DNA of 56,803 nucleotides from positions 1 through 56,803 of IMG/VR virus record IMGVR_UViG_3300030060_002906. One strand, written 5' to 3'. Shown in pieces: positions 3,166 to 41,435 of the stretch; within the stretch, counting starts at the first letter, position 1, and the number at the start of each line of letters is the position of its first letter. Source of the stretch: a virus (lineage: Duplodnaviria > Caudoviricetes). The position numbers and the translations under genes were made by a program. The notes below the pieces were generated by a model. That model saw only the letters and a list, made by a program, of their open reading frames with translations. It searched no databases and was not told the origin of the DNA.

Positions 3166-3852
3166 ATGGCATATCTTACTAGCAACATTCCTTACTTTAA
3201 AGTTTGGATAAGAAAAGAATTTACACATAACCATAGAGATTTTCATGGAGAGTATTTACATGGTTTGGCTATAGCTGTTACTGCAATACCAGATCGTTCT
3301 TTATCTTTTCAAGTAGTCTTTACGGGTTGTGAAGATGAAGACAATAGAGTCAATGGTCCTCATGGTGGAGCTATGTGGGCTCGTATGCCAATACAATCTC
3401 TTGTGGCTGATGAAGTTCTAGATGAATTTCCTCCAAGAATACCTAATCACTTTGTTCAGCCTTGGGATTGTTCTAGTAGACACTTTAGTATTATAAGATA
3501 TGACAGGACGAGCAGCTCTCCTTGGATTACAAAAATAGATGGTCAGTTTTATAATGCTAAATATTATTTTACGATTGATTACACAAACGGAGATGAAATA
3601 ACAAGTCTTGGAGATGATGTGGCTCAGCACAAACAGAGTCATGTATTAGCTATAACGAATGGTGAATTTAAAGGACAAATAGTTGCACAACCTAATAATA
3701 GAGTGCGAGTAACAAACCCTGCCTTATGGGTAACAGGAGATGGTGCTCCTAATTTTATACCAAGCCAGTATGAGTTTTCAGCTGAAGAGGACGAGAGTTA
3801 TATGGATCCTGAATATACTTTTGATAATCTTTATGCTGATAAAAAAAAATAA
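3166..3852 (+). CDS. conserved marine phage hypothetical protein
   Basis: Clean ORF; MAYLTSNIPYFK...GGAMWARMPI...QPWDC...QHKQSHV...AQPNNR pattern recalled from marine phages; function unknown. Confidence 0.65.
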   Translation: MAYLTSNIPYFKVWIRKEFTHNHRDFHGEYLHGLAIAVTAIPDRSLSFQVVFTGCEDEDNRVNGPHGGAMWARMPIQSLVADEVLDEFPPRIPNHFVQPWDCSSRHFSIIRYDRTSSSPWITKIDGQFYNAKYYFTIDYTNGDEITSLGDDVAQHKQSHVLAITNGEFKGQIVAQPNNRVRVTNPALWVTGDGAPNFIPSQYEFSAEEDESYMDPEYTFDNLYADKKK

Positions 3853-4597
3853 AAACTCTTTTGTAATTACCGATTTTACAATTAAGTCTGTGTATAAGTA
3901 TAAGACCTATACAAGAAACGATGAAGAAACTAGAACTTATAATGTAGGTAAAGATAAGTTCCCTTCTGTTACTACCATACTATCAGCTACACAAAGTGAA
4001 GATAAAAAACTAGCTTTATTAAACTGGAAAAAAAGAATAGGTGAAGCTATGGCTAAAAAAATCACGATTGACGCAGCCAGAAGAGGAACAGAGATGCACC
4101 TAGTATTAGAAAAATATTGTCAGGGTATACCTTATTTAAATACAACAGTCCAGGGAAACGTATCACGATTGATGGCTCACACTATAGTAGAAAATTTAGG
4201 TAAGTTAAAAGAGGTGTGGGGAAGTGAGGTTAGTTTAATGTATGAAGATTATTGTCCCTCTTTATATCCTGATCCTAAAAAGATGGCGTGGGCAGGTATG
4301 ACAGATTTAGTTGGTTTGTATGATGATAAACCTACAATTATAGATTTCAAGCAATCTAATAGATTGAAAAGAGAAGAGTGGATTGAAGATTATTATTATC
4401 AAATTGCTGCGTATTCATTAGCACATAAATTATACTATGGTCCTATCGAACAAGGTTTGATATGTATTTGTACTAAAGATATGCAGTATCAACAATTTAT
4501 TATGGATGATAATAAAATATTAGAATATGAAAATAAATGGATGGAGAGAGCTTACGAGTATTACAAAAAGTTAAGCACTATCTCTCCTAAAACTTGA
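3833..4597 (+). CDS. PD-(D/E)XK exonuclease (MGME1/RecB/Cas4-like)
   Basis: FPSVTTILS, RGTEMH, AGMTDLVG, IIDFKQS, YYQIAAYS motifs; start moved to ATG 3833. Confidence 0.85.
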   Translation: MLIKKNKNSFVITDFTIKSVYKYKTYTRNDEETRTYNVGKDKFPSVTTILSATQSEDKKLALLNWKKRIGEAMAKKITIDAARRGTEMHLVLEKYCQGIPYLNTTVQGNVSRLMAHTIVENLGKLKEVWGSEVSLMYEDYCPSLYPDPKKMAWAGMTDLVGLYDDKPTIIDFKQSNRLKREEWIEDYYYQIAAYSLAHKLYYGPIEQGLICICTKDMQYQQFIMDDNKILEYENKWMERAYEYYKKLSTISPKT

Positions 4598-5961
4598 GAA
4601 GACATTGTTTTCTTTTTATTTAAAGCATCTAAAATAAATTCGTCAATGGTTCCTTTAGTTACTATGTCTACATAAGTAACACTTTTGTTTTGTCCTTTTC
4701 TATGTGCTCTATCTTCTGATTGTTCTCTATGTGTAAGATCAAAAGAGTTACTATAATATATAACAGTTTGAGCAGCTGTTAAATTTAATCCATATCCTCC
4801 AGTTGAGGGATTGCCTACAAAAAATCTTGTGTATTTGTCATTTTGAAAATCTTTAACAGCTCTGTCTCTATCCTCTACACTCACTGCTCCGTACATAGCT
4901 ACTGTTTTGTCTTCTGGATATTTTTGTCTTAATGTTTTTATTATGTGTTCTAAGTTAAAAATATAATTAGCCCAAATAATTATTTTACCTTCTGTTTCAT
5001 CTATAACATTTATAAGTTCTTTTATTTTGTTATTATCTAATTCTTTATTTTCTTTATTGTCTGTGCAGAAAAAACCACAAGTCACTTGATGTAATCTGAG
5101 CAACTCTGTTAATTTATTTGTGTAAGAAGATTCTTTGTTTTGAAAAACTGCTCTGGCATATTTTTTTAAGTTAGCATAAATTTCAATTTGCTCCTTACTT
5201 AAATGCACATATCTTTTTACATAAATTTTTGGTGGTAAGTCTAAACAATTTTCTTTTATTGCACGATAAGAAAAACTTTTTATTTTATTTTTTAACTCAT
5301 CTACATTTTGATAATCATAAGGTATCATAGTTTGTCTAAATCCATCTCTTGTTAAAGGCCTAAGTTTAGCGTACCTAGCTCGAAAAGAATAATAACTAGA
5401 AAAACCTAACAAACCTTTTTTTAAAAATTCACATTGAGCATACAAGTCTAAAGGATTTTTAGTAACAGGTGATCCTGTCATAGCTCTTTTGTAAATTATA
5501 TTTTCAGCTAACTTAATAATATTTTTTGTTCTTTTGGCTTTTGGATTTTTTATAGTAGTGCTTTCATCTATAACCATAAACATATTTTTTTCATGATCTT
5601 GAACTAATTTTTTTGCTACTTTCATTCCTGATTGTATAGAAAAAGATTCTACATTCATAATATACCAATTTAGTAAATTAGGATCATAGTCAAACTTATC
5701 TACTTTATGTATGTAAATTTTATTTCTAGCAGAACTATGTGTATTTATTTCGTGCATCCAATTATGCGTAACGCTGTTTGGTGCTATTGCTAACACAACA
5801 TTAATTTTTTTTTCAGTCCATAAGTACACAGCATTATCTATTGCTACTTTTGTTTTACCTGTACCCATACCCATAGTAAGAAAAAAGTAATCTGATTTAG
5901 CTCCTTTTATAAGAGCTTCACGCTGATGTTCTAAGGGTTTTGTCCGATATTTAAATGCCAT
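4561..5961 (-). CDS. SNF2-family (SF2) helicase
   Basis: MGTGKT Walker A, VIDEST, MTGSP, GGYGLNL, QSEDRAHRKGQ; likely start MAFKYRTKP at 5961. Confidence 0.92.
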   Translation of the reverse strand: MAFKYRTKPLEHQREALIKGAKSDYFFLTMGMGTGKTKVAIDNAVYLWTEKKINVVLAIAPNSVTHNWMHEINTHSSARNKIYIHKVDKFDYDPNLLNWYIMNVESFSIQSGMKVAKKLVQDHEKNMFMVIDESTTIKNPKAKRTKNIIKLAENIIYKRAMTGSPVTKNPLDLYAQCEFLKKGLLGFSSYYSFRARYAKLRPLTRDGFRQTMIPYDYQNVDELKNKIKSFSYRAIKENCLDLPPKIYVKRYVHLSKEQIEIYANLKKYARAVFQNKESSYTNKLTELLRLHQVTCGFFCTDNKENKELDNNKIKELINVIDETEGKIIIWANYIFNLEHIIKTLRQKYPEDKTVAMYGAVSVEDRDRAVKDFQNDKYTRFFVGNPSTGGYGLNLTAAQTVIYYSNSFDLTHREQSEDRAHRKGQNKSVTYVDIVTKGTIDEFILDALNKKKTMSSQVLGEIVLNFL

Positions 5962-6620: not shown

Positions 6621-7392
6621 TGTAGCAATAAAGAAGAACGATCTACCAGCCTTAAATGACTGGAAAAAAGATGCAGGTATGGGGTTTGAAGAAGCCTCAT
6701 CTGATGAGTTTAAGTTACCTTTAATCAAGATAATTTATTCTAGCAGTATGCCTGATGTAGAAAAAACTGTAGATGGTAAACCAGTTAGTGAGGGTTGTAT
6801 CTATAACCAAACTAGCGAAAGAGCTTATGCTGGAGAACCTGGTATGTTAGTTGTGCCTTGTTATTACAAAAGAAGTTTTAACGAGTGGGCACCTTTAGAG
6901 GATGGTAACAACAGACCTGTTGCCGTACATAAAGACAAGCCAGAGGGTACAGTTAGAAATGGTAATAAAGATGAACTACCTAATGGTAATTATGTTGAAG
7001 ATACAGGTAATTGGTTTGTTATGATATTAGACTCTAAATATCAAGTAATAGAAGAGGGTTTAATAACTATGAAGTCTACACAAAAGAAAAAAGCAACCGA
7101 GTGGTTACAAAAACTACGAAGTAATCAAATAGATGGACAGACACCTCCAGGTTATAAATGTGTATATAGACTTAGCACTATAAGACAGAAAAGTGGCACA
7201 TATAAATACTGGGGTTGGCAAATTAGATTTGATAGGTTTTTAGAAGAGTCTGATAAAAAAGACGCTACTACTTATGTCAAAGCAAAAACCTTTGCACATC
7301 ACGCTAAAGAATTTAATTTGTATTATGGTCCAGAAAGCCAAGAGCAAACTGACAATCCTAATACGAAAGAAGCAAAAGAAGTACCCTTCTAA
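6610..7392 (+). CDS. single-stranded DNA-binding/annealing protein (putative)
   Basis: LITMKSTQKKKA motif, acidic tail ending in PF, position before primase. Confidence 0.6.
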   Translation: MMSDVAIKKNDLPALNDWKKDAGMGFEEASSDEFKLPLIKIIYSSSMPDVEKTVDGKPVSEGCIYNQTSERAYAGEPGMLVVPCYYKRSFNEWAPLEDGNNRPVAVHKDKPEGTVRNGNKDELPNGNYVEDTGNWFVMILDSKYQVIEEGLITMKSTQKKKATEWLQKLRSNQIDGQTPPGYKCVYRLSTIRQKSGTYKYWGWQIRFDRFLEESDKKDATTYVKAKTFAHHAKEFNLYYGPESQEQTDNPNTKEAKEVPF

Positions 7393-8954: not shown

Positions 8955-10539
8955 AGTTCTACACAGGAAAACAATAAAAATATTTGGACCACCAGGTACA
9001 GGTAAAACACATACACTTGTCGAAAGAGTATTGAAAGGTCATTTAAAAAAAGGTGTCAAACCAATAGACATTGCATTCATATCTTTTACAAATAAAGCAG
9101 TTAACACAGCCATTGATAGAGCAATAAAAGCTTTTCCACAGTATGATAGTGATGACTTTGCACGATTTAAAACATTACATAAATACTGTAGACGATACTT
9201 TGAAGAAGAAGTATTTGATCCGAAAGCTTGTATGTTAGATTATGCGTTACAAGCTAGCATCATAAAAAGAAGTGATACTAGGTTGTCTGATGATAATTTT
9301 ACTTATAAAGATTGGTCATTAGGTGTGTATGATAAAGCACGAAACATGATGGAGGAGCCAGTTAAAGTATACAAAAGAGAACAATCAAAAATGGATAGCC
9401 TAGATGTATTTTTAAGAAAGATAGATACATATGAACATTATAAAAAAGATAGTTTTATAGACTTTACTGACATGATTGAAAGAACTATTGAAGAGGTAGA
9501 CTTTCCAAAGTTAGAAATATTAATATTAGATGAAGCTCAAGACTTTACACCTTTACAATGGAGTGTGTTATATAAAATGGCACAGGGTGCAAAAAGAATA
9601 TATTTAGCAGGGGATGATGATCAAGGAATATACAAATTTAATGGCAGTGATCCTAAATATTTCACTACATATTTTCCAGGGCGTAAAGTTATACTAAGAC
9701 AAACGAGAAGATTTGGTGAAGCCATACATCATTTTAGTCAGATCATTAGAAGGGGTATACTAGATAGTATAGAGAAAGATTATGACTCGTTAAAAAAAGA
9801 TGGTTATGTAAAAAGATATTTAAACTTTGCTGAGATACCAATAGGAGAGCTGCCCGGAACTTGGTATTTACTAGGTAGAGTTAATACTACTGTCAATGAA
9901 CTTCGAGCTTGTGCAAAAGATGCTGGATTATATTACGGAGACAACAGAGGGAATAAATCTTTTGATACAAAACAATGGAGAGCTATAAAGTCCTGGACAA
10001 GAATTAGTAAAGGTAAATCTATAAAAAAACATGATGCTGAAATTATGATGCGATACATTCGAGAGATTAAAGATCATAGTTATAGGAGAACTTCTTTTTG
10101 GATAGAGTTACCAGATACACATGAATATGATTTTGATGGGTTGTGTGATTGGTGTGGTTTAAATTTAAATGATGATGCAGCTACTAAACCTTGGTGGGAT
10201 ATATTACAAAGAAACTTTACAGCGACACAAACAGAATATTTTATTAGATTATTAAAAAGATATGGTCAAGATAGTTTAGATAATGATCCACAGATCATAA
10301 TTGATACGATACATAGTGTCAAAGGTGGAGAGGCAAATAATGTTTTATTATATTCTAAAGCTAACTACCCATCCTCTTTTGTAAATAAAAAATCAGCAGA
10401 TGATAAGTCTGATGAAAAAAGAGTTTATTACACAGGAGCCACGAGAGCCAGAGATACTTTACATATACTATCTAGTAATTATAGGTATAATTATCCGATA
10501 GGTGAAGATTATTTAATATATTTAAGGGAGAAAAAATAA
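8911..10539 (+). CDS. UvrD/Rep-like SF1 DNA helicase
   Basis: GPPGTGKT, SFTNKA, LDEAQD, GDDDQ, TIHSVKGGEA, YTGATRA. Confidence 0.93.
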   Translation: MMSITQENLELQRHKVLHRKTIKIFGPPGTGKTHTLVERVLKGHLKKGVKPIDIAFISFTNKAVNTAIDRAIKAFPQYDSDDFARFKTLHKYCRRYFEEEVFDPKACMLDYALQASIIKRSDTRLSDDNFTYKDWSLGVYDKARNMMEEPVKVYKREQSKMDSLDVFLRKIDTYEHYKKDSFIDFTDMIERTIEEVDFPKLEILILDEAQDFTPLQWSVLYKMAQGAKRIYLAGDDDQGIYKFNGSDPKYFTTYFPGRKVILRQTRRFGEAIHHFSQIIRRGILDSIEKDYDSLKKDGYVKRYLNFAEIPIGELPGTWYLLGRVNTTVNELRACAKDAGLYYGDNRGNKSFDTKQWRAIKSWTRISKGKSIKKHDAEIMMRYIREIKDHSYRRTSFWIELPDTHEYDFDGLCDWCGLNLNDDAATKPWWDILQRNFTATQTEYFIRLLKRYGQDSLDNDPQIIIDTIHSVKGGEANNVLLYSKANYPSSFVNKKSADDKSDEKRVYYTGATRARDTLHILSSNYRYNYPIGEDYLIYLREKK

Positions 10540-16237: not shown

Positions 16238-16750
16238 ATGCCACAGAGAAAAAAAATAGTTAGAACACAAAAAGATTTAACAACTAAACAAAAAAACTAC
16301 ATAGATATTTTAGTGAATGATTGGGGTAATATCACAAAGGTAGATGCTTTATTAAAAGCTGGATACAAAAGTAAAAATAAAGATGCTGCTATGGTATTAG
16401 CCAGTAAGCTCACCAACCCAAATTTGAATCCACACGTGTGTAGATACTTAGAGTATAAATTAAGTAAAGAACAAGAGAAATATGAAAAAGACAAATTAAG
16501 AAGATATAAAACTTTTGAAAGATTACGTGATGGAGCTGAACAAAAAGGACAGTACACAGGAGCTATTGCTGCAGAGTTTAGGTCAGGACAGCTTGCAGGA
16601 CAATTTGTGGATAAAAAAGAGGTGACTCATAGTACATTAGAGGGTATGAGTAGGGTAGAATTAGAAAAAAGATTGAAAGAATTAGAGAATAAAATCAATG
16701 ATGGAGCTACGATAATAGATGTCACGCCCTCTAAAAAAAAGACTAACTGA
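16238..16750 (+). CDS. terS: terminase small subunit
   Basis: LTTKQKNY...ALLKAGY...ASKL HTH pattern; GAIAAE...G.FVDKKE; IIDVTP tail. Confidence 0.75.
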   Translation: MPQRKKIVRTQKDLTTKQKNYIDILVNDWGNITKVDALLKAGYKSKNKDAAMVLASKLTNPNLNPHVCRYLEYKLSKEQEKYEKDKLRRYKTFERLRDGAEQKGQYTGAIAAEFRSGQLAGQFVDKKEVTHSTLEGMSRVELEKRLKELENKINDGATIIDVTPSKKKTN

Positions 16751-17144
16751 AAAAAAAATTTGGAATAAACTTAACCTGCTTCAGAAAGAGTTACCAGGTG
16801 CTCATTTTACTAAGATTGAAAGTTCTACTATCAACGGAATCCCTGATGTTCATTGCTGTTATCAATCTTGTAGTTTTTGGTTAGAATTGAAAGCAAATCA
16901 AGGTAAGAATTTGAATGTTTCTAAATATCAAATAGCATGGCATTTAAAATACAAAGGAGCTGGTGGACTTTCTTACATCTTGAACTGGCCCCTCATCCAT
17001 GTACCACCAAAACTGTACGAGATTCGTGAGCCCGGAGTTCCCGTTCCCGCAATCGGGATGCCCGTTCCCGTTATCATTATAAATAAAATGCTCTCAGGTG
17101 ATCCTGGCGTTTCCCGCCAGGCGGCCAGCTCCGCGCAGCCCTAG
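16719..17144 (+). CDS. PD-(D/E)XK endonuclease / Holliday junction resolvase (VRR-NUC-like)
   Basis: KIE...GIPDV...FWLELK...QIAWH...GG; C-terminus runs into the repeat element. Confidence 0.75.
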   Translation: MSRPLKKRLTEKKIWNKLNLLQKELPGAHFTKIESSTINGIPDVHCCYQSCSFWLELKANQGKNLNVSKYQIAWHLKYKGAGGLSYILNWPLIHVPPKLYEIREPGVPVPAIGMPVPVIIINKMLSGDPGVSRQAASSAQP

Positions 17145-17150
17145 CGGAAA
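17031..17150 (+). repeat. GC-rich CCCGTT element 1
   Basis: CCCGTTCCCG at 17040 and 17061, then GGTGATCCTGG...GCGCAGCC...GCGGAAA. Confidence 0.85.
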
Positions 17151-17159
17151 ACTACTGGC

Positions 17160-17206
17160 TTGACATCCTGAAACCCTGTGCTATATTATCCGATATTAAA
17201 CGGAGG
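17160..17206 (+). promoter_or_regulatory. early promoter, operator and RBS
   Basis: TTGACA-16-(TG)TATATT, TATCCGATA 17187-17195, AAACGGAGG 17198-17206. Confidence 0.75.
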
Positions 17207-17211
17207 TAAAA

Positions 17212-17496
17212 ATGAAAATAACTTTAAACAAAAAAAATTTTATCGAGCAGGTGAGACAGCATTACCGCTGGAAGCAGTTCAGCTACGAGGCGTGGGAGCA
17301 AATTTTCGAATGGGAAGATGAGATGGGCTCCGATGTCGAATATGATCCAGTAGCGTTTTGTTGCACATATGCCGAGTACGACTCATTTGAAAAGCTAAAA
17401 GAAGACTATAGCAATATAAATACTTTTGATGATCTAGAGGGCAAGACCTGGGTGGCTAATTTGCCTGAGGGGCGTGTGCTCATTAGGCAGTTTTAA
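17212..17496 (+). CDS. early hypothetical protein (acidic)
   Basis: Strong RBS; FSYEA...YDPVAFCCTYAEY. Confidence 0.75.
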   Translation: MKITLNKKNFIEQVRQHYRWKQFSYEAWEQIFEWEDEMGSDVEYDPVAFCCTYAEYDSFEKLKEDYSNINTFDDLEGKTWVANLPEGRVLIRQF

Positions 17497-17603
17497 TGTT
17501 TGGGTTTTTTTTAATCATGTTTTTTTTGATTATGATCATGCCTAGAGTTTTAGCAGCTGCTTTAATTATTTTAATGTTTGCGATCGTGGCTCTAATTTTT
17601 TAG
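17496..17603 (+). CDS. 35-aa hydrophobic peptide
   Basis: MFGFFLIMFFLIMIMPRVLAAALIILMFAIVALIF; TAATG coupling to the upstream gene. Confidence 0.55.
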   Translation: MFGFFLIMFFLIMIMPRVLAAALIILMFAIVALIF

Positions 17604-17605
17604 AG

Positions 17606-17692
17606 CCCGTTGCCCGTTCCCGTTACGTGTAAGATCCGGACGGGTGCGTGGTGACCTGGGCCGCATCCCCGCAGGCGCAGCCGTGCTGGAAA
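17606..17692 (+). repeat. GC-rich CCCGTT element 2
   Basis: CCCGTTGCCCGTTCCCGTTACGTG...GGTGACCTGG...GCGCAGCCGTGCTGGAAA. Confidence 0.85.
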
Positions 17693-17714
17693 CATGAAGG
17701 TGTGTTAAAAAGGT

Positions 17715-17742
17715 TTGACTTATCCGATAAATATAGTATTAT
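17715..17742 (+). promoter_or_regulatory. early promoter with operator
   Basis: TTGACT, TATCCGATA (17721-17729), TATTAT at a 16-bp spacer. Confidence 0.75.
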
Positions 17743-17838
17743 TAATTATGAGAGAGTAACTATGAAAACAAATGTAGCTTTAAAACGTAGTGGACTGTTA
17801 CTCTGGTAACTCTCTCTCACAAACTAACGGAGAAAAAA

Positions 17839-18042
17839 ATGGACGATTTAACAAAACTTATGCTAATGGACCCCTTGTTTATTCAAGCAATGAAAGACCT
17901 GGAGGACAGAGGCTACATTAAAGTAAAAGGAGAAGAAGGCATCGAGATCATTGACAAAGAAGGACTGCAAAAGTATTACGACAACTTTGGAGTAGCTCCT
18001 GACCATTTCCCAAAGGTAAAAGGAGAGGAGTTAAAGAAGTGA
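17839..18042 (+). CDS. early hypothetical protein (possible winged-helix fragment)
   Basis: RBS AACGGAG; QAMKDLEDRGYIKVKG...IEIID. Confidence 0.65.
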   Translation: MDDLTKLMLMDPLFIQAMKDLEDRGYIKVKGEEGIEIIDKEGLQKYYDNFGVAPDHFPKVKGEELKK

Positions 18043-18191
18043 ATATCATTACAAAAAGTGTTGATGAAATACAGAATATTTATCTAAGAGTAATAGAAGA
18101 AATTGAAGATAAAAAAGAAAGAGAAATAATACATTATTTATTTCAAGATTTATCAGACAAGTTACTTGACAATGTAAAAGAAGATTCTTAG
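18039..18191 (+). CDS. 50-aa hypothetical protein (not in the ORF track)
   Basis: GTG overlapping the upstream TGA, RBS gaggag; ends in TAG just before the repeat. Confidence 0.55.
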   Translation: MNIITKSVDEIQNIYLRVIEEIEDKKEREIIHYLFQDLSDKLLDNVKEDS

Positions 18192-18193
18192 AT

Positions 18194-18440
18194 CCCGTTC
18201 CCGTTACCATTAGGTAACGGGAATTTTTTTTTGCAGGGAAGCTTTGCAGCCCCGCGGGGCCTGGGAGCTGGAAATGAAAGTTCCCGTTCCCGTTCACCAA
18301 GGATTTCCTAGTATTTTTTTTTCAGGATGGCTATTTCCGGCCAGGCGCCGGTGCTGGAAAATCCCGTTCCCGTTTTCGCAAGACTAAGGTAGGTCTGCGT
18401 TTGAGGTTTCCAGCTCGCTGCGCCAGATCCGCGACATGCC
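18194..18440 (+). repeat. three tandem CCCGTT elements (units of about 80-89 bp)
   Basis: CCCGTTCCCGTT at 18194, 18283 and 18363; GCTGGAAA at 18267 and 18353; inverted TTTCCAGC at 18407. Confidence 0.9.
18198..18232 (+). terminator. intrinsic terminator built from a repeat copy
   Basis: TTCCCGTTACC-atta-GGTAACGGGAA followed by a T run. Confidence 0.75.
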
Positions 18441-18473
18441 AAAAAAATTTTTGAAAGCAGGTTGATAAATGTC

Positions 18474-18524
18474 TTGTGCTATCCGATATATATAGTATAA
18501 TTTAATTTTAAACTTAAACGGAGG
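18474..18524 (+). promoter_or_regulatory. early promoter, operator and RBS
   Basis: TTGTGC, TATCCGATA (18480-18488), TATAAT at a 16-bp spacer, AAACGGAGG 18516-18524. Confidence 0.75.
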
Positions 18525-18529
18525 TAAAA

Positions 18530-19126
18530 ATGGGATTTGATATTTACGGACTAAATCCAAAATTAAAAAGTGAAAGACCAAAAATAGATTGGAACAATCA
18601 CACAAAAGCAGAAGCAGAACAATATTTTAAAGATGTAGAAAAATTTGAAAAAGAAAATCCAGGTTATTATTTTAGAAATAATGTTTGGTGGTGGCGACCA
18701 TTAGCAGACTTTGTTTTGTGGTTAGCTGATAAAGAGTTTACAACAGACAAGGATAGACAAGGTTGGCACCATAACGGAGGTTATAGAGTTGACGAAAAAA
18801 AAGCCAAAGTTATTGCAGATCTTTTAGAAGCGTCTATAGATGAGGGTATAGCGAAAAGATACCAAGATGCTACAGATGACAAGATGAAAAAAGCTAAAGC
18901 ACATAACAAAGAAATTGAAAAAAAACATAAGGAGTTAAGAAAAATTGTTGAAAGGCATACGGGTAAAAAAGATTTAGTTCCAAACGATTATCCAGAACCA
19001 TTTAACAGTCAATGGAATGATATTCAAAAGCTAACAAACTATGAAGCTCATTATCCTTTTAGTGTGGACAATGTAAAAGACTTCGCCAAATTCTGTCGTG
19101 AATCTGGAGGCTTTGAAATTTGTTAG
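18530..19126 (+). CDS. conserved early phage hypothetical protein
   Basis: MGFDIYG...YFRNNVWWWRPL...YPFS...FCRESGGFEIC. Confidence 0.75.
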   Translation: MGFDIYGLNPKLKSERPKIDWNNHTKAEAEQYFKDVEKFEKENPGYYFRNNVWWWRPLADFVLWLADKEFTTDKDRQGWHHNGGYRVDEKKAKVIADLLEASIDEGIAKRYQDATDDKMKKAKAHNKEIEKKHKELRKIVERHTGKKDLVPNDYPEPFNSQWNDIQKLTNYEAHYPFSVDNVKDFAKFCRESGGFEIC

Positions 19127-19200
19127 ATTTGCCACTAATCTTTTTAGAGGGATTGCTATACTTAGCAATCTCTCTTTTCTTTTTATACTTCGCTACATAG
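19120..19200 (+). CDS. 26-aa hydrophobic peptide
   Basis: RBS GGAGG at 19106, TTG start, (M)LDLPLIFLEGLLYLAISLFFLYFAT, TAG directly before the repeat. Confidence 0.45.
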   Translation: MLDLPLIFLEGLLYLAISLFFLYFAT

Positions 19201-19202
19201 TT

Positions 19203-19372
19203 CCCCGTTCCCGTTTCCCATTTCCGTTGCACCAGGTTTTGTGTTCGTGACAGGGGCCGCAGCTGGCCGCGGATCGCACTAGCTGGTGAACGAACTCCCA
19301 TTCCCATTACCATTTCCCATTCCCGTTTCCCGTTACGTGCGAGACTTGTGCCTGCTGGCGCACCAGGGGATG
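19203..19372 (+). repeat. two CCC(G/A)TT elements
   Basis: CCCGTTCCCGTTTCCCATTTCCGTT at 19204; CCCATT/CCCGTT array 19297-19334; GC-rich GCTGG-containing segments. Confidence 0.85.
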
Positions 19373-19423
19373 CGTTTTGTGAGCTTCGGAAGAAAAATTA
19401 AAAAGTTTTTTTATTTTATTTCC

Positions 19424-19452
19424 TTGATTTAACGGATTATAAATATTATATT
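19424..19452 (+). promoter_or_regulatory. early promoter
   Basis: TTGATT-17-TATATT with an AT-rich upstream region; spacer holds AACGGATTA, a possible inverted operator variant. Confidence 0.55.
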
Positions 19453-19501
19453 AATAGTAAGATTAATTCATAAACAAAACTTTAAACGAAAGGAAAAAAC
19501 A

Positions 19502-19825
19502 ATGAAAAATCTTAAATCAAAATTAGAAATAAACATTAATGAAGTTTTAGCAGATATATATGATGCTGATAATAAAAGAAAAGAGTTTGCAGAAAAGTAT
19601 GCAAATCTTAAAAAAATTATTACTCAATATATGGATTCTAAAGGCATTAATGAAATTCATATTAATAAAGAAGGATTTGAAGGTTATGTGCAAAGAACAA
19701 TAACCTATCCTAATAACTTCAATAATAAAAAGTTTAAAGAAGATCATCAGTCTTTATATGAAGAGTATTCATCTAAAGGCAAGAGAGTTTCTTTATTAAC
19801 TGATAACTTAAAAGAGGTAAATTAA
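19502..19825 (+). CDS. early hypothetical protein
   Basis: Coiled coil then FNNKKFKEDHQSLYEEY, resembling tails of YqaJ/Gam-type phage proteins. Confidence 0.65.
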   Translation: MKNLKSKLEININEVLADIYDADNKRKEFAEKYANLKKIITQYMDSKGINEIHINKEGFEGYVQRTITYPNNFNNKKFKEDHQSLYEEYSSKGKRVSLLTDNLKEVN

Positions 19826-20071
19826 ATGAGTGAATTTAAACCTAAATATGAAGTTAAAAAATTTGGTGTTGATAGTGGTCAATTTGTTATAGTAGATCCT
19901 TGTTATTTATATAGGATTGCTGAAGAGTTTAAATTTGATAGGGATATAGTATCCTTAATTAATAAACTTAAAGTTATCGGTGTAGTAGTTGAAACAGGTG
20001 CAGATGGTGAATACTCTGTGTTAACTACTGAAAGAGGAACTACTATAAAACATGGGGGTTATTATGCCTAA
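19826..20071 (+). CDS. hypothetical protein (DUF4241-like motif)
   Basis: FGVDSGQFVIVDPCY...TGADGEY. Confidence 0.6.
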   Translation: MSEFKPKYEVKKFGVDSGQFVIVDPCYLYRIAEEFKFDRDIVSLINKLKVIGVVVETGADGEYSVLTTERGTTIKHGGYYA

Positions 20072-20312
20072 CAATGTTTTAGACTTAATCAATAATCAAT
20101 CTATTATTTCTAGTAATTCAAGATTTAATGAATTAAGAAATTCATTAACAGAAGAACAAAGAAAACAGATTAATTATCAATTAGTGTGTAGTGCTATGGA
20201 AAAAGCTATCATAGAAATTTATGCAGAGTATCCTAATAGCAATGTGACAAATGCACTCAAAGAAAAACTAATGGAATATCTTGCAGAATTAGCAGTCATT
20301 ATAGATAGATAG
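20064..20312 (+). CDS. hypothetical protein
   Basis: ATG 20064 after GGGGG, overlapping the upstream stop. Confidence 0.6.
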   Translation: MPNNVLDLINNQSIISSNSRFNELRNSLTEEQRKQINYQLVCSAMEKAIIEIYAEYPNSNVTNALKEKLMEYLAELAVIIDR

Positions 20313-20502: not shown

Positions 20503-21978
20503 ATGAAGCCAGATTTAATGACAACTGAAACGTTGAGGCTCGAAGTAGAAAAGAGATGGATCGAGCATATAAAATTATGTCAAGATAACTTTTTATATTT
20601 CGTTAAAGAAGTCTGGCCCGACTTTATATATCGTAAAACTACAGACCCAAATAAGATGGGACATCATCAGATTATTGCAAATGAGTTTACTAAAATAGCT
20701 TCAGATAAAAAAGGGAGGCTCATAATTAACATGCCCCCTCGACACACGAAATCTGAATTTGCTTCCGTTTACTTCCCTGCCTGGATTATTGGTAAGTATC
20801 CAAAATTAAAAATTATGCAAGTATCTCATAATACAGAACTAGCAGTACGATTTGGAAGTAAGGTTCGAAATATTATTGACTCGCCAGAGTACAAACAAAT
20901 TTTTGGTGATGTGAAACTAAGAGAAGACTCAAAAGCAAAAGGAAGATGGGAGATTAGTCAAGGTGGAGAATATTATGCAGCTGGTGTCGGTGCGTCTATC
21001 ACCGGTCGTGGTGCAGACTTACTGATTATTGATGATCCACATACGGAACAAGATTCAATGTCAGATGTTGCTATGGAACGTGCATACGAATGGTATACAT
21101 CAGGACCCAGACAAAGATTGCAACCGGGAGGCTCGATACTTTTAGTAATGACACGATGGGCCGAGGATGATTTAACTGGTCGCTTGTTACGTGCTCAAAC
21201 AGAACCGAAAGCAGATGAGTGGAGACAAATTTCTTTTCCTGCGATTCTCGATTCAGGGAACCCTGTCTGGCCTGAGTATTGGGAAGTAGATGAACTAGAA
21301 AAAATAAAAGCCTCTATCCCGATCCGTAACTGGTCAGCCCAGTATATGCAAGAACCAACTTCCGATGAAGGTGCGATTATAAAACGTGAGTGGTGGCAAC
21401 CTTGGAAACACGAAGGTGTTCCTAATTTAATGCACGTCATACAAAGTTATGATACAGCATTTAGTAAAAAAGAAACTGCAGACTATAGTGCGATTACAAC
21501 ATGGGGTGTATTTTTTCCCGAAGAAGGAGGAGCACCACAAGTGATGTTGTTAGATGCTTTTCGTGGCAAGTTTGATTTTCCAGAACTCAAAGTGGTGGCA
21601 TTACAACATTATAAATACTGGGAACCCGAATCAGTAATCATTGAACAAAAAGCAAGTGGTGAACCATTAACACAAGAGTTTAGAAGAATGGGTATACCTG
21701 TTGTTCCGTTTACACCTGCCAAAGGGAATGATAAATATACCAGGGTAAATGCAGTAGCACCCTTGTTTGAGAGTGGTGCAGTGTGGTATCCGTTTGGTGA
21801 AAAATTTGCAGATGAAGTGATAGATGAGTGTGCTGCTTTTCCTAATGGTGCAAACGATGACTATGTGGACAGTATGACACAAGCTATGTTACGATATAGA
21901 CAAGGTAGTTTCGTTGAACTATACTCAGACTTATTAGAGAACGAAGAACGACCACCAAAAGAATACAACTATTACTGA
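20503..21978 (+). CDS. terL: terminase large subunit
   Basis: LIINMPPRHTKS Walker A, ITGRGAD, IIDDP Walker B, SYDTA and DDYVDS nuclease motifs. Confidence 0.96.
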   Translation: MKPDLMTTETLRLEVEKRWIEHIKLCQDNFLYFVKEVWPDFIYRKTTDPNKMGHHQIIANEFTKIASDKKGRLIINMPPRHTKSEFASVYFPAWIIGKYPKLKIMQVSHNTELAVRFGSKVRNIIDSPEYKQIFGDVKLREDSKAKGRWEISQGGEYYAAGVGASITGRGADLLIIDDPHTEQDSMSDVAMERAYEWYTSGPRQRLQPGGSILLVMTRWAEDDLTGRLLRAQTEPKADEWRQISFPAILDSGNPVWPEYWEVDELEKIKASIPIRNWSAQYMQEPTSDEGAIIKREWWQPWKHEGVPNLMHVIQSYDTAFSKKETADYSAITTWGVFFPEEGGAPQVMLLDAFRGKFDFPELKVVALQHYKYWEPESVIIEQKASGEPLTQEFRRMGIPVVPFTPAKGNDKYTRVNAVAPLFESGAVWYPFGEKFADEVIDECAAFPNGANDDYVDSMTQAMLRYRQGSFVELYSDLLENEERPPKEYNYY

Positions 21979-40538: not shown

Positions 40539-41435
40539 ATGGCATCTACATACTCATCAGATTTAAAACTTGAACTCATGGCAACTGGTGAAAACGCTGG
40601 TACATGGGGTGATAAAACAAATACAAATTTAAATTTAGTACAACAGGCAATAGGTGGCTTTGAACAAGTCACAGTTGGTGATGGAGCAACAGTTGCTCTT
40701 GCCATGACTGATGGTACTATATCAAACGCAAGAAATATGGTTGTTAAAGTGGCTACTGTTACTCTATCAGGAGCCACTGTTTTAACAGTACCTGACAGCA
40801 TTGAAAAAATGTACATCTTTGATGTAACAGCTGTAACAAACCCAACAAACTTAACTATTAAAACTGCAAGTGGGACTGGCTTTTCTCCAGATCAAGCAAA
40901 AATTTATTTTGCATATGCAGACGGAACTAACATAGTAGAAGTATCTTTAGATACTCTAGGTGGTGCAATTGGTTCTGATAGTTTACCAACTGTACCTGTA
41001 AATAAAGGTGGTACGGGTGCAACAACTTTAGCAGGTGCAAATATAGCAGTATTAAACGCTACAAATAATTTTGCAGATAATATATTACAAAGAAGTTTGT
41101 TAAAAGACACAGGTGAAGTTAGAGTAGCATTAGGAGATTTAGGTGGTGGCACAGACGATATAGATTTATCTGCTGGAAATGTTTTTACTGCAACAGTATC
41201 AACAGGCACACAAACTTTAACTTTTTCAAACCCAAGTCCAAGTGGTAATGCTTGTACTTTTATGTTGATACTAACTAATGGTGGATCACAAACAGTAAAC
41301 TTTCCAGCATCTGTAGATTTTCCTGGTGGTTCTGCACCAACTTTAACAGCAGCTGGTGTAGACATTTTAATGTTTACCACAGTAGATGGGGGTACAACAT
41401 ATCATGGCATTTTAGCAAGTTCGGATAGTAAATAA
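40539..41435 (+). CDS. tail fibre protein
   Basis: MASTYS..LELMATGENAGTWG..TNTNL anchor, VPVNKGGTGATT, C-terminal GSAPTLT..GVDI domain. Confidence 0.75.
   Translation: MASTYSSDLKLELMATGENAGTWGDKTNTNLNLVQQAIGGFEQVTVGDGATVALAMTDGTISNARNMVVKVATVTLSGATVLTVPDSIEKMYIFDVTAVTNPTNLTIKTASGTGFSPDQAKIYFAYADGTNIVEVSLDTLGGAIGSDSLPTVPVNKGGTGATTLAGANIAVLNATNNFADNILQRSLLKDTGEVRVALGDLGGGTDDIDLSAGNVFTATVSTGTQTLTFSNPSPSGNACTFMLILTNGGSQTVNFPASVDFPGGSAPTLTAAGVDILMFTTVDGGTTYHGILASSDSK

Follow-up and report, generated by a model that had tools for sequence, protein, structure and literature searches.

What is the role of the GC-rich repeat arrays which, interspersed with small genes, occupy the interval between the genes of the small and large terminase subunits (terS and terL) in the virus IMGVR_UViG_3300030060_002906? 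This IMG/VR record, hereafter the window (i.e., the whole analyzed stretch of 56,803 bases), is a complete virus genome, the end repeats of which point to a circular assembly, and nearly all of its open reading frames (ORFs) are located on the plus strand. Because its terL is 74.5% identical at the DNA level to terL of Pelagibacter phage HTVC023P and its product matches PHROG 38, the genome is classified, on sequence grounds, as an uncultured HTVC023P-type pelagiphage (a phage of the SAR11 bacteria, abundant in the ocean). The explanation that we favor, with a probability of about 0.5, is that the arrays are boundary modules of a hyperplastic accessory-gene region, which would end or insulate transcripts and give homology for the turnover of gene cassettes.

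Oriented CCCGTT arrays upstream of terL

The sequence CCCGTTCCCGTT was found in the window at six exact sites (17061, 17613, 18194, 18283, 18363, and 19204) and at one site with a single mismatch (19316), all on the plus strand, against an expectation of 0.03 sites; none of 100 shuffles reached seven. Moreover, all 16 CCCGTT hexamers of the genome fall within 17040-19334 on the same strand, as expected from the oriented GC-rich elements with CCCGTT cores described in the original prediction, which was made from the sequence alone. The reverse complement, AACGGG, occurs three times in the genome and once in this region (at 18216, in the arm of a terminator). The GC content of the four array-bearing spacers (E1 to E4, Table 1) is 0.49-0.64 versus 0.34 for the genome, and the GC skew is negative in the elements and positive in the genes of the genome, with a value of about -0.1 for the spacers overall. 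The accompanying motifs also lie where they had been placed, i.e., GCTGGAAA at 17685, 18267, and 18353 (with a further copy at 41172 and the inverted TTTCCAGC at 18407), the palindrome TATCCGATA at 17187, 17721, and 18480 (outside the cassettes also at 10492 and 12917), and AACGGAG at 17199, 17826, and 18517; the strings GCGCAGCC and CCCGTTACGTG are shared as claimed.

Two statements on location need to be narrowed. Of the interval "between terS and terL", the terL end is firm, while terS was named solely through 57% identity to an ORF of HTVC023P, and the ORF itself obtained no Pfam or PHROG name. Similarly, the arrays do not all lie between genes, as the first is located inside the ORF 16719-17144 (the predicted nuclease gene nuc), and only the later ones in spacers. 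A third regularity, the TAG stop 2-3 nt before the next CCCGTT, holds in the window (ORFs 17496-17603, 18039-18191, and 19120-19200) but is not general; stops used in the relatives are TAA (17), TGA (13), and TAG (11), so it is incidental.

The relatives were gathered by a TerL search of IMG/VR, which gave 595 related stretches; the best 80 of them and three GenBank records, i.e., 83 loci, were compared. Near-identical loci (L004/L005, L007/L008, L014/L015, L020/L022, and L080/L081) were merged by exact context in the counts of distinct units, array position, terminators, inverted partners, and nuc arrays. Of the 83 loci, 16 contain the exact 12-mer, which in every case precedes terL and lies on the strand of the genes, and a looser pattern detected 105 arrays on the plus strand versus two on the minus strand. 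In the 11 loci of the CCCGTT type, the order terS, nuc, gA, gB, gC, ..., gF, terL is retained and the genes show 68-88% DNA identity, while the spacers are mostly unalignable except for arrays and promoters. The stretch is also covered by metagenome contigs of four runs from three studies. Since this layout is conserved across loci, it reflects neither chance nor misassembly; the latter, named in advance as a possible refutation, is excluded by the 16 independent IMG/VR contigs and the contigs of the four runs.

Module anatomy, possible transcript ends, and cassette turnover

Besides being conserved and strand-biased, the modules have a definite anatomy, which was compiled from 94 distinct units. 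A module usually starts with GTT followed by two to four copies of CCCGTT, 2-12 nt past the last stop codon. The array is followed by its own inverted copy, by an independent hairpin with a T-run, or by no hairpin, and then by a T-rich or AT-rich stretch (often with TTTATAGTTAG). The module ends with a GC block of 40-60 nt closing in CGGGAAA or GCTGGAAA, 3' of which another module or a promoter is found, and modules are single, double, or triple. An ORF with at least 25 codons stops 0-15 nt before 41 of the 87 distinct arrays, a further 11 arrays overlap the end of an ORF, and most of the other 35 are second or third tandem units. The three sites at 18194, 18283, and 18363, previously interpreted as empty slots, are better described as tandem copies of one spacer module, as the relatives have one to three modules per border and none of them has a gene between tandem modules. 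Dispersed arrays go with the presence of cassettes. They were found in none of the 14 loci with a nuc-to-terL distance of up to 1290 nt, which have no cassettes, and in 26 of the 43 loci with longer intervals; the array finder took exact copies only, so imperfect arrays (L013, L020, L026, L036, and L056) are undercounted here and in the nuc ORF counts below.

Several minor features of the modules were noted as well. The motif GGCTGGC is oriented in the GC blocks (19 loci, versus two for its complement), and the oriented k-mers of these blocks may reflect only common descent; ORF families f8 and f9, which overlap GC modules, look spurious. A 14-mer search of bacterial genomes gave scattered single matches (at least 120, mostly in GC-rich taxa), which are uninformative about a host counterpart, and no counterpart beyond these among the matches listed; in viral contigs it gave mostly single matches.

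In each genome, roughly one module is a strong intrinsic terminator built from the array. In the window, this is the first module of E3, in which the array forms the 5' arm of a 12-pair stem (18197-18224) followed by T9; the segment 18189-18240 has a folding energy of -23.3 kcal/mol (z -5.1, none of 200 shuffles as good). A canonical terminator, strictly defined as a hairpin with a T-run, lies 3' of 15 of the 87 arrays versus two of 300 random places, which corresponds to about one strong terminator per genome. The inverted partner tracks the unit of the lineage, being AACGGG for 9 of 66 CCCGTT arrays, AACGAG for two of eight CTCGTT arrays, and GGGACGGG for two of 12 CCCGT arrays, with a background of 0.003-0.013 per 45 nt; this is a compensatory pattern at the lineage level.

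The other modules of the window fold like shuffled sequences (E1, z -1.15, not significant; E2, -1.07; the E3 modules at 18283 and 18363, -0.56 and +0.15; E4, -0.35 and -1.02). As this is so, and as the relatives have no common hairpin, a structured RNA or an attC-like folded site finds no support, and the structured-RNA reading of the GC blocks was rejected for the window (z -0.35 to -1.15). Many relatives have minimum-energy folds in which the array pairs with a distal CGGG(N)GGGAA to form a closing stem; this possibility was also considered but not adopted, since the stem is weak in the window and the CTCGTT sublineage lacks it. An Rfam scan of 16500-20000 (E up to 1) returned a single chance match (E 0.6).

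It is hardly credible that the modules are selfish mobile units resembling miniature inverted-repeat transposable elements, repetitive extragenic palindromes (REPs), or attC sites, or else an artefact of assembly. The distal pairing just mentioned would close a unit of about 85 nt in many relatives, and one to three copies of the unit stand in tandem, both of which fit a mobile unit. Nevertheless, the pairing is weak in the window and its folds resemble shuffles, the modules keep a single orientation in a single genomic interval, and CCCGTT does not fit the integron core motif (GTTRRRY/RYYYAAC). Furthermore, neither a PF00589 integrase (for which the positive control matched in 14 of 14 genomes) nor a PF01797 Y1 transposase nor a PF00078 reverse transcriptase was found in the complete genome, so the locus is integrase-free, as had been proposed, with respect to PF00589. 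The 16 IMG/VR contigs, all independent, and the run contigs mentioned above (four runs, three studies) exclude an artefact.

Cassette content and order differ both among relatives and among co-occurring variants. Over the 83 loci, the gene content and order of the terS-terL interval vary, as in the hyperplastic regions of T4-type phages discussed below. The slot after gB holds tB in the window and f10, f14, both, or nothing in relatives, and the gD slot is filled by f11, f13, or f20. Family f12 replaces gB in L007 and L008 and follows gC in L049 and L050, while gB stands directly before terL in L076 and L082; breakpoint mapping for f12 and gB at these differing positions in distant sublineages was abandoned, as the sequences are too diverged. 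Homologues of gC occur in 40 of the 83 loci and are placed before nuc in HTVC023P and L018. Between L010 and L011 (84-94% identical), an ORF indel of 250 nt ends about 15 nt before an array, and the replacement of the module homologous to E2 runs from within the array up to the promoter that follows.

Variants within metagenomes were judged from assembled contigs. In those of X1 (depth 36, with the main form at about 88) and in two contigs of X2, position 17739/17742 is joined to 18510/18516, which deletes cassette 2 together with spacer E3 and leads from the -10 box of one repeated promoter to the ribosome-binding site (RBS) of the next. The cassette deletions that the original prediction proposed to look for are thereby represented by a form without cassette 2. 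Contigs of X3 and X6 skip the leader insert of gB (17739-17822/17833), and one X6 contig skips 19187-19314, between two arrays of E4. The X6 back-joints 19286->17712 and 19290->17707 may reflect a mini-circle or, equally, a relative with another gene order, and the joint 16911->19204 is ambiguous.

For the breakpoint tests, eight of the 11 CCCGTT-type loci with a complete nuc-terL interval were used (the window, L005, L048, L009, L010, L011, L015, and L008), one being kept per near-identical pair, and 28 pairs were compared. Ends of high-scoring segment pairs (HSPs) fall within 15 nt of an array in 82 of 472 cases (17%), versus 7% under a uniform null and 11% under a non-genic null, and the highest of 500 randomization draws reached 15%; near promoters, the value is 6% versus 3-5%. 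The arrays are thus borders more often than by chance, but they are not "the" breakpoints.

The region is a chain of small units, in each of which a sigma-70-type promoter with TATCCGATA and a strong AACGGAG RBS precede one or two small genes; the GC-rich modules between them, taken as boundary modules, may mark transcript ends or insulate the units. Arrays and promoters recurring at the borders could supply short patches of identity to phage homologous recombination, and such patches might lead to deletion, duplication, and exchange of cassettes, as in the modular shuffling of the promoter-early stem-loop (PeSL) type. The independent regulation of cassettes that this entails is backed by the transcriptome of HTVC027P, a phage described as relying on the host RNA polymerase (PMC12753301); in the RNA-seq data as presented there, only gp30, gp33, and gp34 form "extra temporal clusters" (PMC12753301), and all three map to the interval homologous to the cassette region. 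No relation between gp33 of HTVC027P and gC was detectable (E 0.17).

The lineage-specific repeat unit and its possible readers

Other sublineages have other repeats at the same places, namely CCCGTTT, CCCGT, CTCGTT, CCCGCCGT, CATAAC, 12-mers with AATCATA, and 14-mers, in each sublineage on one strand only. Expansions of border repeats were observed in L040, with (CATAAC)11 at 2206-2271, and in L026, with five 12-mer copies at 1674-1733. In HTVC023P (L001) there are no CCCGTT arrays, and its borders consist of other repeats and of tiny hydrophobic ORFs with TTGACA promoters. Its border repeats lie at 2190-2300, 2650-2760, 4660-4800, 5741-5830, and 6752-6790; terS is followed by three tandem copies of 33 nt and the nuc homologue by an 18-nt motif in three copies, a TTGACA promoter stands after each of two paralogous tiny hydrophobic ORFs, and gp28 is directly followed by TTTCCCTGTTCCCTGG with a hairpin. 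In HTVC027P (L002), the cassettes gp32-gp34 are on the minus strand and so are the 7-mer arrays (CAAGCTT/CAAGCCN); as these arrays follow minus-strand cassettes, array orientation goes with the cassette and not with terL. The HTVC027P arrays at 2810-2960 and 3700-4040 pass without a break into the -35 boxes of gp33 and gp34; the C-terminal half of gp32 is encoded by 7-mer arrays as well.

The repeat unit is also translated. The nuc product matches PHROG 2165 (E 2.4e-13) and PHROG 93, endonuclease (E 2e-6), over residues 8-88, with E34, D43, E56, K58, and Q71 invariant among 28 homologues; Pfam VRR_NUC gave no match, and searches of PDB chain, NCBIfam, and Pfam sequences gave nothing significant. 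Its AF2 model (pLDDT 88) resembles Holliday-junction resolvases of the Hjc/RecU type, which fill Foldseek ranks 1-10, with weak scores (E 4e-3 to 3e-2, TM 0.47-0.55). In the window, the first array is translated in a linker after the nuclease domain as VPVP..PVPV, and the linker peptide repeat differs by sublineage (PVPV, SRSRSR, NHT.NHT., or SLPDS..), in several lineages being followed by a short conserved C-terminal helix. An exact tandem array is present in the 3' part of 29 of 49 distinct nuc ORFs, and in 23 of these 29 the unit recurs before terL.

Within the favored explanation, i.e., boundary modules, the same recombination or gene conversion may homogenize the repeat unit within a lineage, and it is proposed that such concerted evolution makes the unit uniform within a genome and different between sublineages; it was put forward, too, for the in-frame nuc copy (but see below). 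Several results weigh against this reading. The enrichment of breakpoints at arrays is modest (about 1.5-2.5-fold), the 472 ends come from 28 non-independent pairs, and conserved arrays by themselves tend to stop alignments. Among 42 array pairs with an upstream flank at least 75% identical, the downstream flank falls below 55% in only four and remains at least 75% identical in 12, counts that stand without a control baseline. The alignment of the interval across relatives, suggested originally, gave a divided answer: gene slots do vary, but the claim that gene content switches exactly at CCCGTT fails, with HSP ends enriched as above and downstream similarity lost in four of 42 pairs. Moreover, the clearest deletion joints lie in promoters and not in arrays. 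With regard to transcription, only 15 of 87 arrays (one of seven in the window) precede a canonical terminator, so that termination or insulation elsewhere is an assumption; the GC blocks of the window fold no better than shuffles (z -0.35 to -1.15), and 52 GC blocks of relatives share no hairpin, which leaves their role unexplained. No single positional logic holds, as the array of some sublineages comes after the terminator or directly adjoins a -35 box. Finally, a perfect 12-mer at about seven sites, among genes of 68-88% DNA identity, suggests direct selection on the array, which the favored explanation does not predict; concerted evolution does not explain the array perfection, the GC blocks, or the in-frame nuc copy. 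Both the exactness and the lineage specificity of the repeat unit are unaccounted for, and a trans-acting reader of the array stays a live alternative for this reason. At the DNA level it could be TerS or the nuclease and at the RNA level Rho or a phage protein; a transcription factor is a further candidate.

A reader on DNA is, in our judgment, rather unlikely. The arrays would then be sites for a lineage-specific packaging or processing protein (pac-like, recognized by TerS, or cut by a Hjc/RecU-like nuclease), and cuts or their resolution would make the interval recombination-prone, with cassettes as a by-product. The confinement of arrays to the interval from terS/nuc to terL is in line with it, and so are the first array, always at the 3' end of nuc (exact in 29 of 49 nuc ORFs, 23 with the unit downstream), and the nuc model resembling junction resolvases. 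Another fitting trait is a unit that varies between sublineages and is uniform within a genome, since in iteron/initiator and pac/TerS pairs the site behaves in the same manner, changing between lineages. Hexamer arrays occur in the pac site of P1, and short repeat arrays adjoin the ends of T7. On the other hand, six to eight dispersed sites with intervening genes do not resemble the pac and cos sites known so far, with a repeat period of 5-8 bp the sites are not kept on one face of the DNA duplex, and the arrays of HTVC027P follow the inverted cassettes rather than nuc or terL. When array type was placed on TerS and TerL trees (39 loci with both proteins complete, of 84 sources), seven changes were needed on each alike, which gives no signal of co-variation with TerS rather than TerL and singles out no protein as the array reader. 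In the passages searched, the papers on the isolates state no genome termini.

A reader on RNA we regard as unlikely. According to this view, host Rho (at rut-like sites) or a phage RNA-binding protein governing read-through of the cassette terminators would land on the arrays, taken as C-rich, G-poor stretches just past stop codons, and the GC blocks would be pause sites. Their strict sense orientation, including the minus-strand cassettes of HTVC027P, their position 0-15 nt past stops, and the negative GC skew of the elements versus positive in genes are consistent with it, as is the excess of C over G in every sense-strand unit (CCCGTT, CCCGTTT, CCCGT, CTCGTT, CCCGCCGT, CATAAC, the 12-mers, and TCAAGCT). 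The array is furthermore the 5' arm of the strongest terminator, and a bound protein could block this hairpin; HutP and TRAP are examples of bound proteins that block a terminator hairpin. Rut sites, however, are unstructured stretches of RNA, rich in C and poor in G, that extend over about 70 nt before the stop points, whereas the arrays have only 12-25 nt and whole spacers are not G-poor (skew about -0.1). Besides, some arrays come after a terminator or immediately before a -35 box, positions at which transcripts should be scarce, the nuc copy is translated, and exact tandem identity goes beyond what composition alone explains.

We consider it very unlikely that a phage transcription factor uses the arrays as operators or activator sites to time the cassette promoters. 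In HTVC027P, the 7-mer arrays enter the -35 boxes of gp33 and gp34, which are presented as a temporal class apart (PMC12753301), and a lineage-specific unit would fit co-evolution of factor and site. In the window, however, the arrays precede the next -35 box by 95-260 nt, with no constant spacing; the spacing between the module-end GGAAA motif and the -35 box varies in relatives, too (about 7-35 nt), and "promoterless" tandem modules exist (18283 and 18363). The sole helix-turn-helix (HTH)-like cassette protein, gB, is absent from L007 and L008, which keep the arrays.

The capture platform of the original prediction takes on a more specific form with the nuc copy. The arrays might be the working sites of an integrase-free cassette platform, with an in-frame master copy in the resolvase-like gene and a repeat closing each downstream cassette; the nuclease would cut or resolve junctions or cruciforms there, so that genes are captured, lost, and reordered. 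We consider this quite doubtful. If true, it would be a functional analogue of attI/attC in which a structure-specific nuclease replaces the integrase, and co-evolution of the repeat unit with the enzyme, or with a partner of the enzyme, would divide the most abundant pelagiphages into exchange groups.

Known systems and the parts of the interval

The closest known counterpart of the boundary modules is the PeSL, described by Arbiol et al. in 2010 (PMC2839356) and Comeau et al. in 2014 (PMC4122927) as a composite terminator/promoter flanking small non-essential ORFs in the hyperplastic regions of T4-type myoviruses, with crossovers (mini-circles) mapped between the -10 box and the Shine-Dalgarno sequence or ATG (PMC2839356). 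As far as these descriptions go, both elements flank small ORFs in a hyperplastic region between core genes, indels or replacements between relatives are located at the motifs in both, a dedicated recombinase is known for neither, and the joints 17739/17742-18510/18516 match the PeSL crossover position. The analogy drawn in the original prediction is therefore sustained by the promoter-led chain of units, the slots filled differently in relatives, and these joints. Feature by feature, the repeated motif includes a site that, by its consensus match (11/12 and 10/12), would be a strong sigma-70-like promoter; indels and replacements end in the motifs (the X1/X2 joints, L010 versus L011, and the HSP ends), with abrupt switches in four of 42 pairs; and an adjacent stem-loop predicted to terminate transcription is confined to one of four borders in the window. 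The locus analyzed here differs in belonging to a SAR11 podovirus and in being a single region (terS-terL), in having at each border a strictly oriented tandem array and a GC block of 40-60 nt, which are not parts of PeSLs, in its lineage-specific unit that is translated also in the neighboring nuclease gene, and in the canonical stem-loop terminator being present at a minority of borders.

Other systems are less similar. Morons of lambdoid and other tailed phages (the concept of Hendrix and Juhala) are extra genes with their own promoter, and sometimes a terminator, between conserved genes; both systems have separately promoted extra genes in such positions, but morons are single insertions without a shared repeated boundary element. 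In integrons (IntI, attI, attC), co-oriented cassettes carry a repeated element directly after the stop. Here, too, co-oriented cassettes are closed by a repeat after the stop, the array begins beside a conserved enzyme gene, and some swapped ORFs (slot after gB) have no promoter of their own; yet there is no tyrosine recombinase and no attC-like stable hairpin, the core does not match, and most cassettes have their own promoters. REPs and bacterial interspersed mosaic elements of enterobacteria, associated with RAYT transposases, are clustered GC-rich extragenic repeats after stops with proposed roles at mRNA ends. The arrays share with them the clustering just after stop codons and the GC-richness, and differ by having no Y1 transposase, by being generally not palindromic, and by their one orientation and one locus.

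In the passages searched, two genome papers on this phage group and the transcriptome paper do not mention such repeats, promoters, or intergenic elements. New are the unit turnover among sublineages, the translated copy in a resolvase-like gene, the link between arrays and cassettes, and the promoter-to-promoter deletion form. A large pan-genome with many unique genes per genome has been described for this group (PMC9599517), and the elements mark the seat of this variable gene content and offer a concrete route for its turnover. The perfectly kept, lineage-specific unit translated in a resolvase-like gene is absent from PeSLs and morons, and gives a handle on which protein or RNA reads the array.

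Table 1. Features of the terS-terL interval of the window.
Feature	Position	Strand	Description
terS-like gene	16238..16750	+	170 aa; 57% aa identity to HTVC023P gp21, annotated terminase small subunit
nuc	16719..17144	+	predicted PD-(D/E)xK nuclease, Hjc/RecU-like model; 3' part reads through first array and E1 GC block
spacer module E1	17031..17159	+	CCCGTT 17040, array 17061-17072, GC block ending GCGGAAAA
promoter-like site	17160..17211	+	TTGACA-16-TATATT, 11/12 consensus, TG before -10; TATCCGATA; RBS TTAAACGGAGG
cassette 1	17212..17603	+	gA, 94 aa, 17212-17496; overlapping hydrophobic tA, 35 aa, 17496-17603
spacer module E2	17604..17714	+	array 17606-17624, GC block, GCTGGAAA at 17685
promoter-like site	17715..17838	+	TTGACT-16-TATTAT, 10/12; TATCCGATA in spacer; insert of ~83 nt; RBS
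cassette 2	17839..18191	+	gB, 67 aa; tB, 50 aa, 18039-18191
spacer E3	18192..18461	+	three tandem modules from 18194, 18283, 18363
promoter of gC	18462..18529	+	TTGTGC/TATCCGATA.../TATAAT; RBS TTAAACGGAGG
cassette 3	18530..19200	+	gC, 198 aa; tC, 26 aa, 19120-19200
spacer E4	19201..19423	+	arrays 19204-19228 and 19297-19335 (CCCGTT/CCCATT mix), GC blocks
gD, gE, gF	19424..20312	+	weaker promoter-like site TTGATT-17-TATATT; arrays absent between these genes
terL	20503..21978	+	PHROG 38, E 5e-116; Pfam Terminase_6N and 6C

The GC content is 0.49-0.57 in E1 and reaches 0.64 in E2. Searches of protein families (Pfam and PHROGs among others) gave no name for gA, gB, tB, or gC; gB has a weak HTH match (Pfam HTH_Crp_2, E 2.6e-4, below the cut-off), and gA is 57-95% identical in 11 relatives. 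A strongly hydrophobic ORF of 35-40 aa corresponding in position to tA follows gA in L005, L008, L009, L010, L011, L015, and L048, overlapping the gA stop (TAATG), with its position kept and its sequence identity low; it may encode a small peptide of the membrane that is coupled to gA. The window contains no tRNA or tmRNA genes. An insertion of about 420 nt between terS and nuc (L010, 3188-3606, and likewise in L014 and L015), with no array at its ends, is missing in L011 and the window.

The promoters of gB and gC (genes at 17839 and 18530) are 78% identical over 36 nt, and the 19-nt RBS string of the gene at 17212 is repeated identically at 18514, before the gene at 18530. The palindrome TATCCGATA lies within or just 3' of five promoter-like sites, two of them outside the cassette region, and looks like a shared operator; in relatives, its position is occupied by TATCGGATA. 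The insert between the promoter and the RBS of gB (17743-17825) forms a long imperfect hairpin (GAGAGAGTAAC..GGTAACTCTCTC, fold z -1.67) and contains a possible leader ORF of 15 codons, and a different insert is located at the same place in L011.

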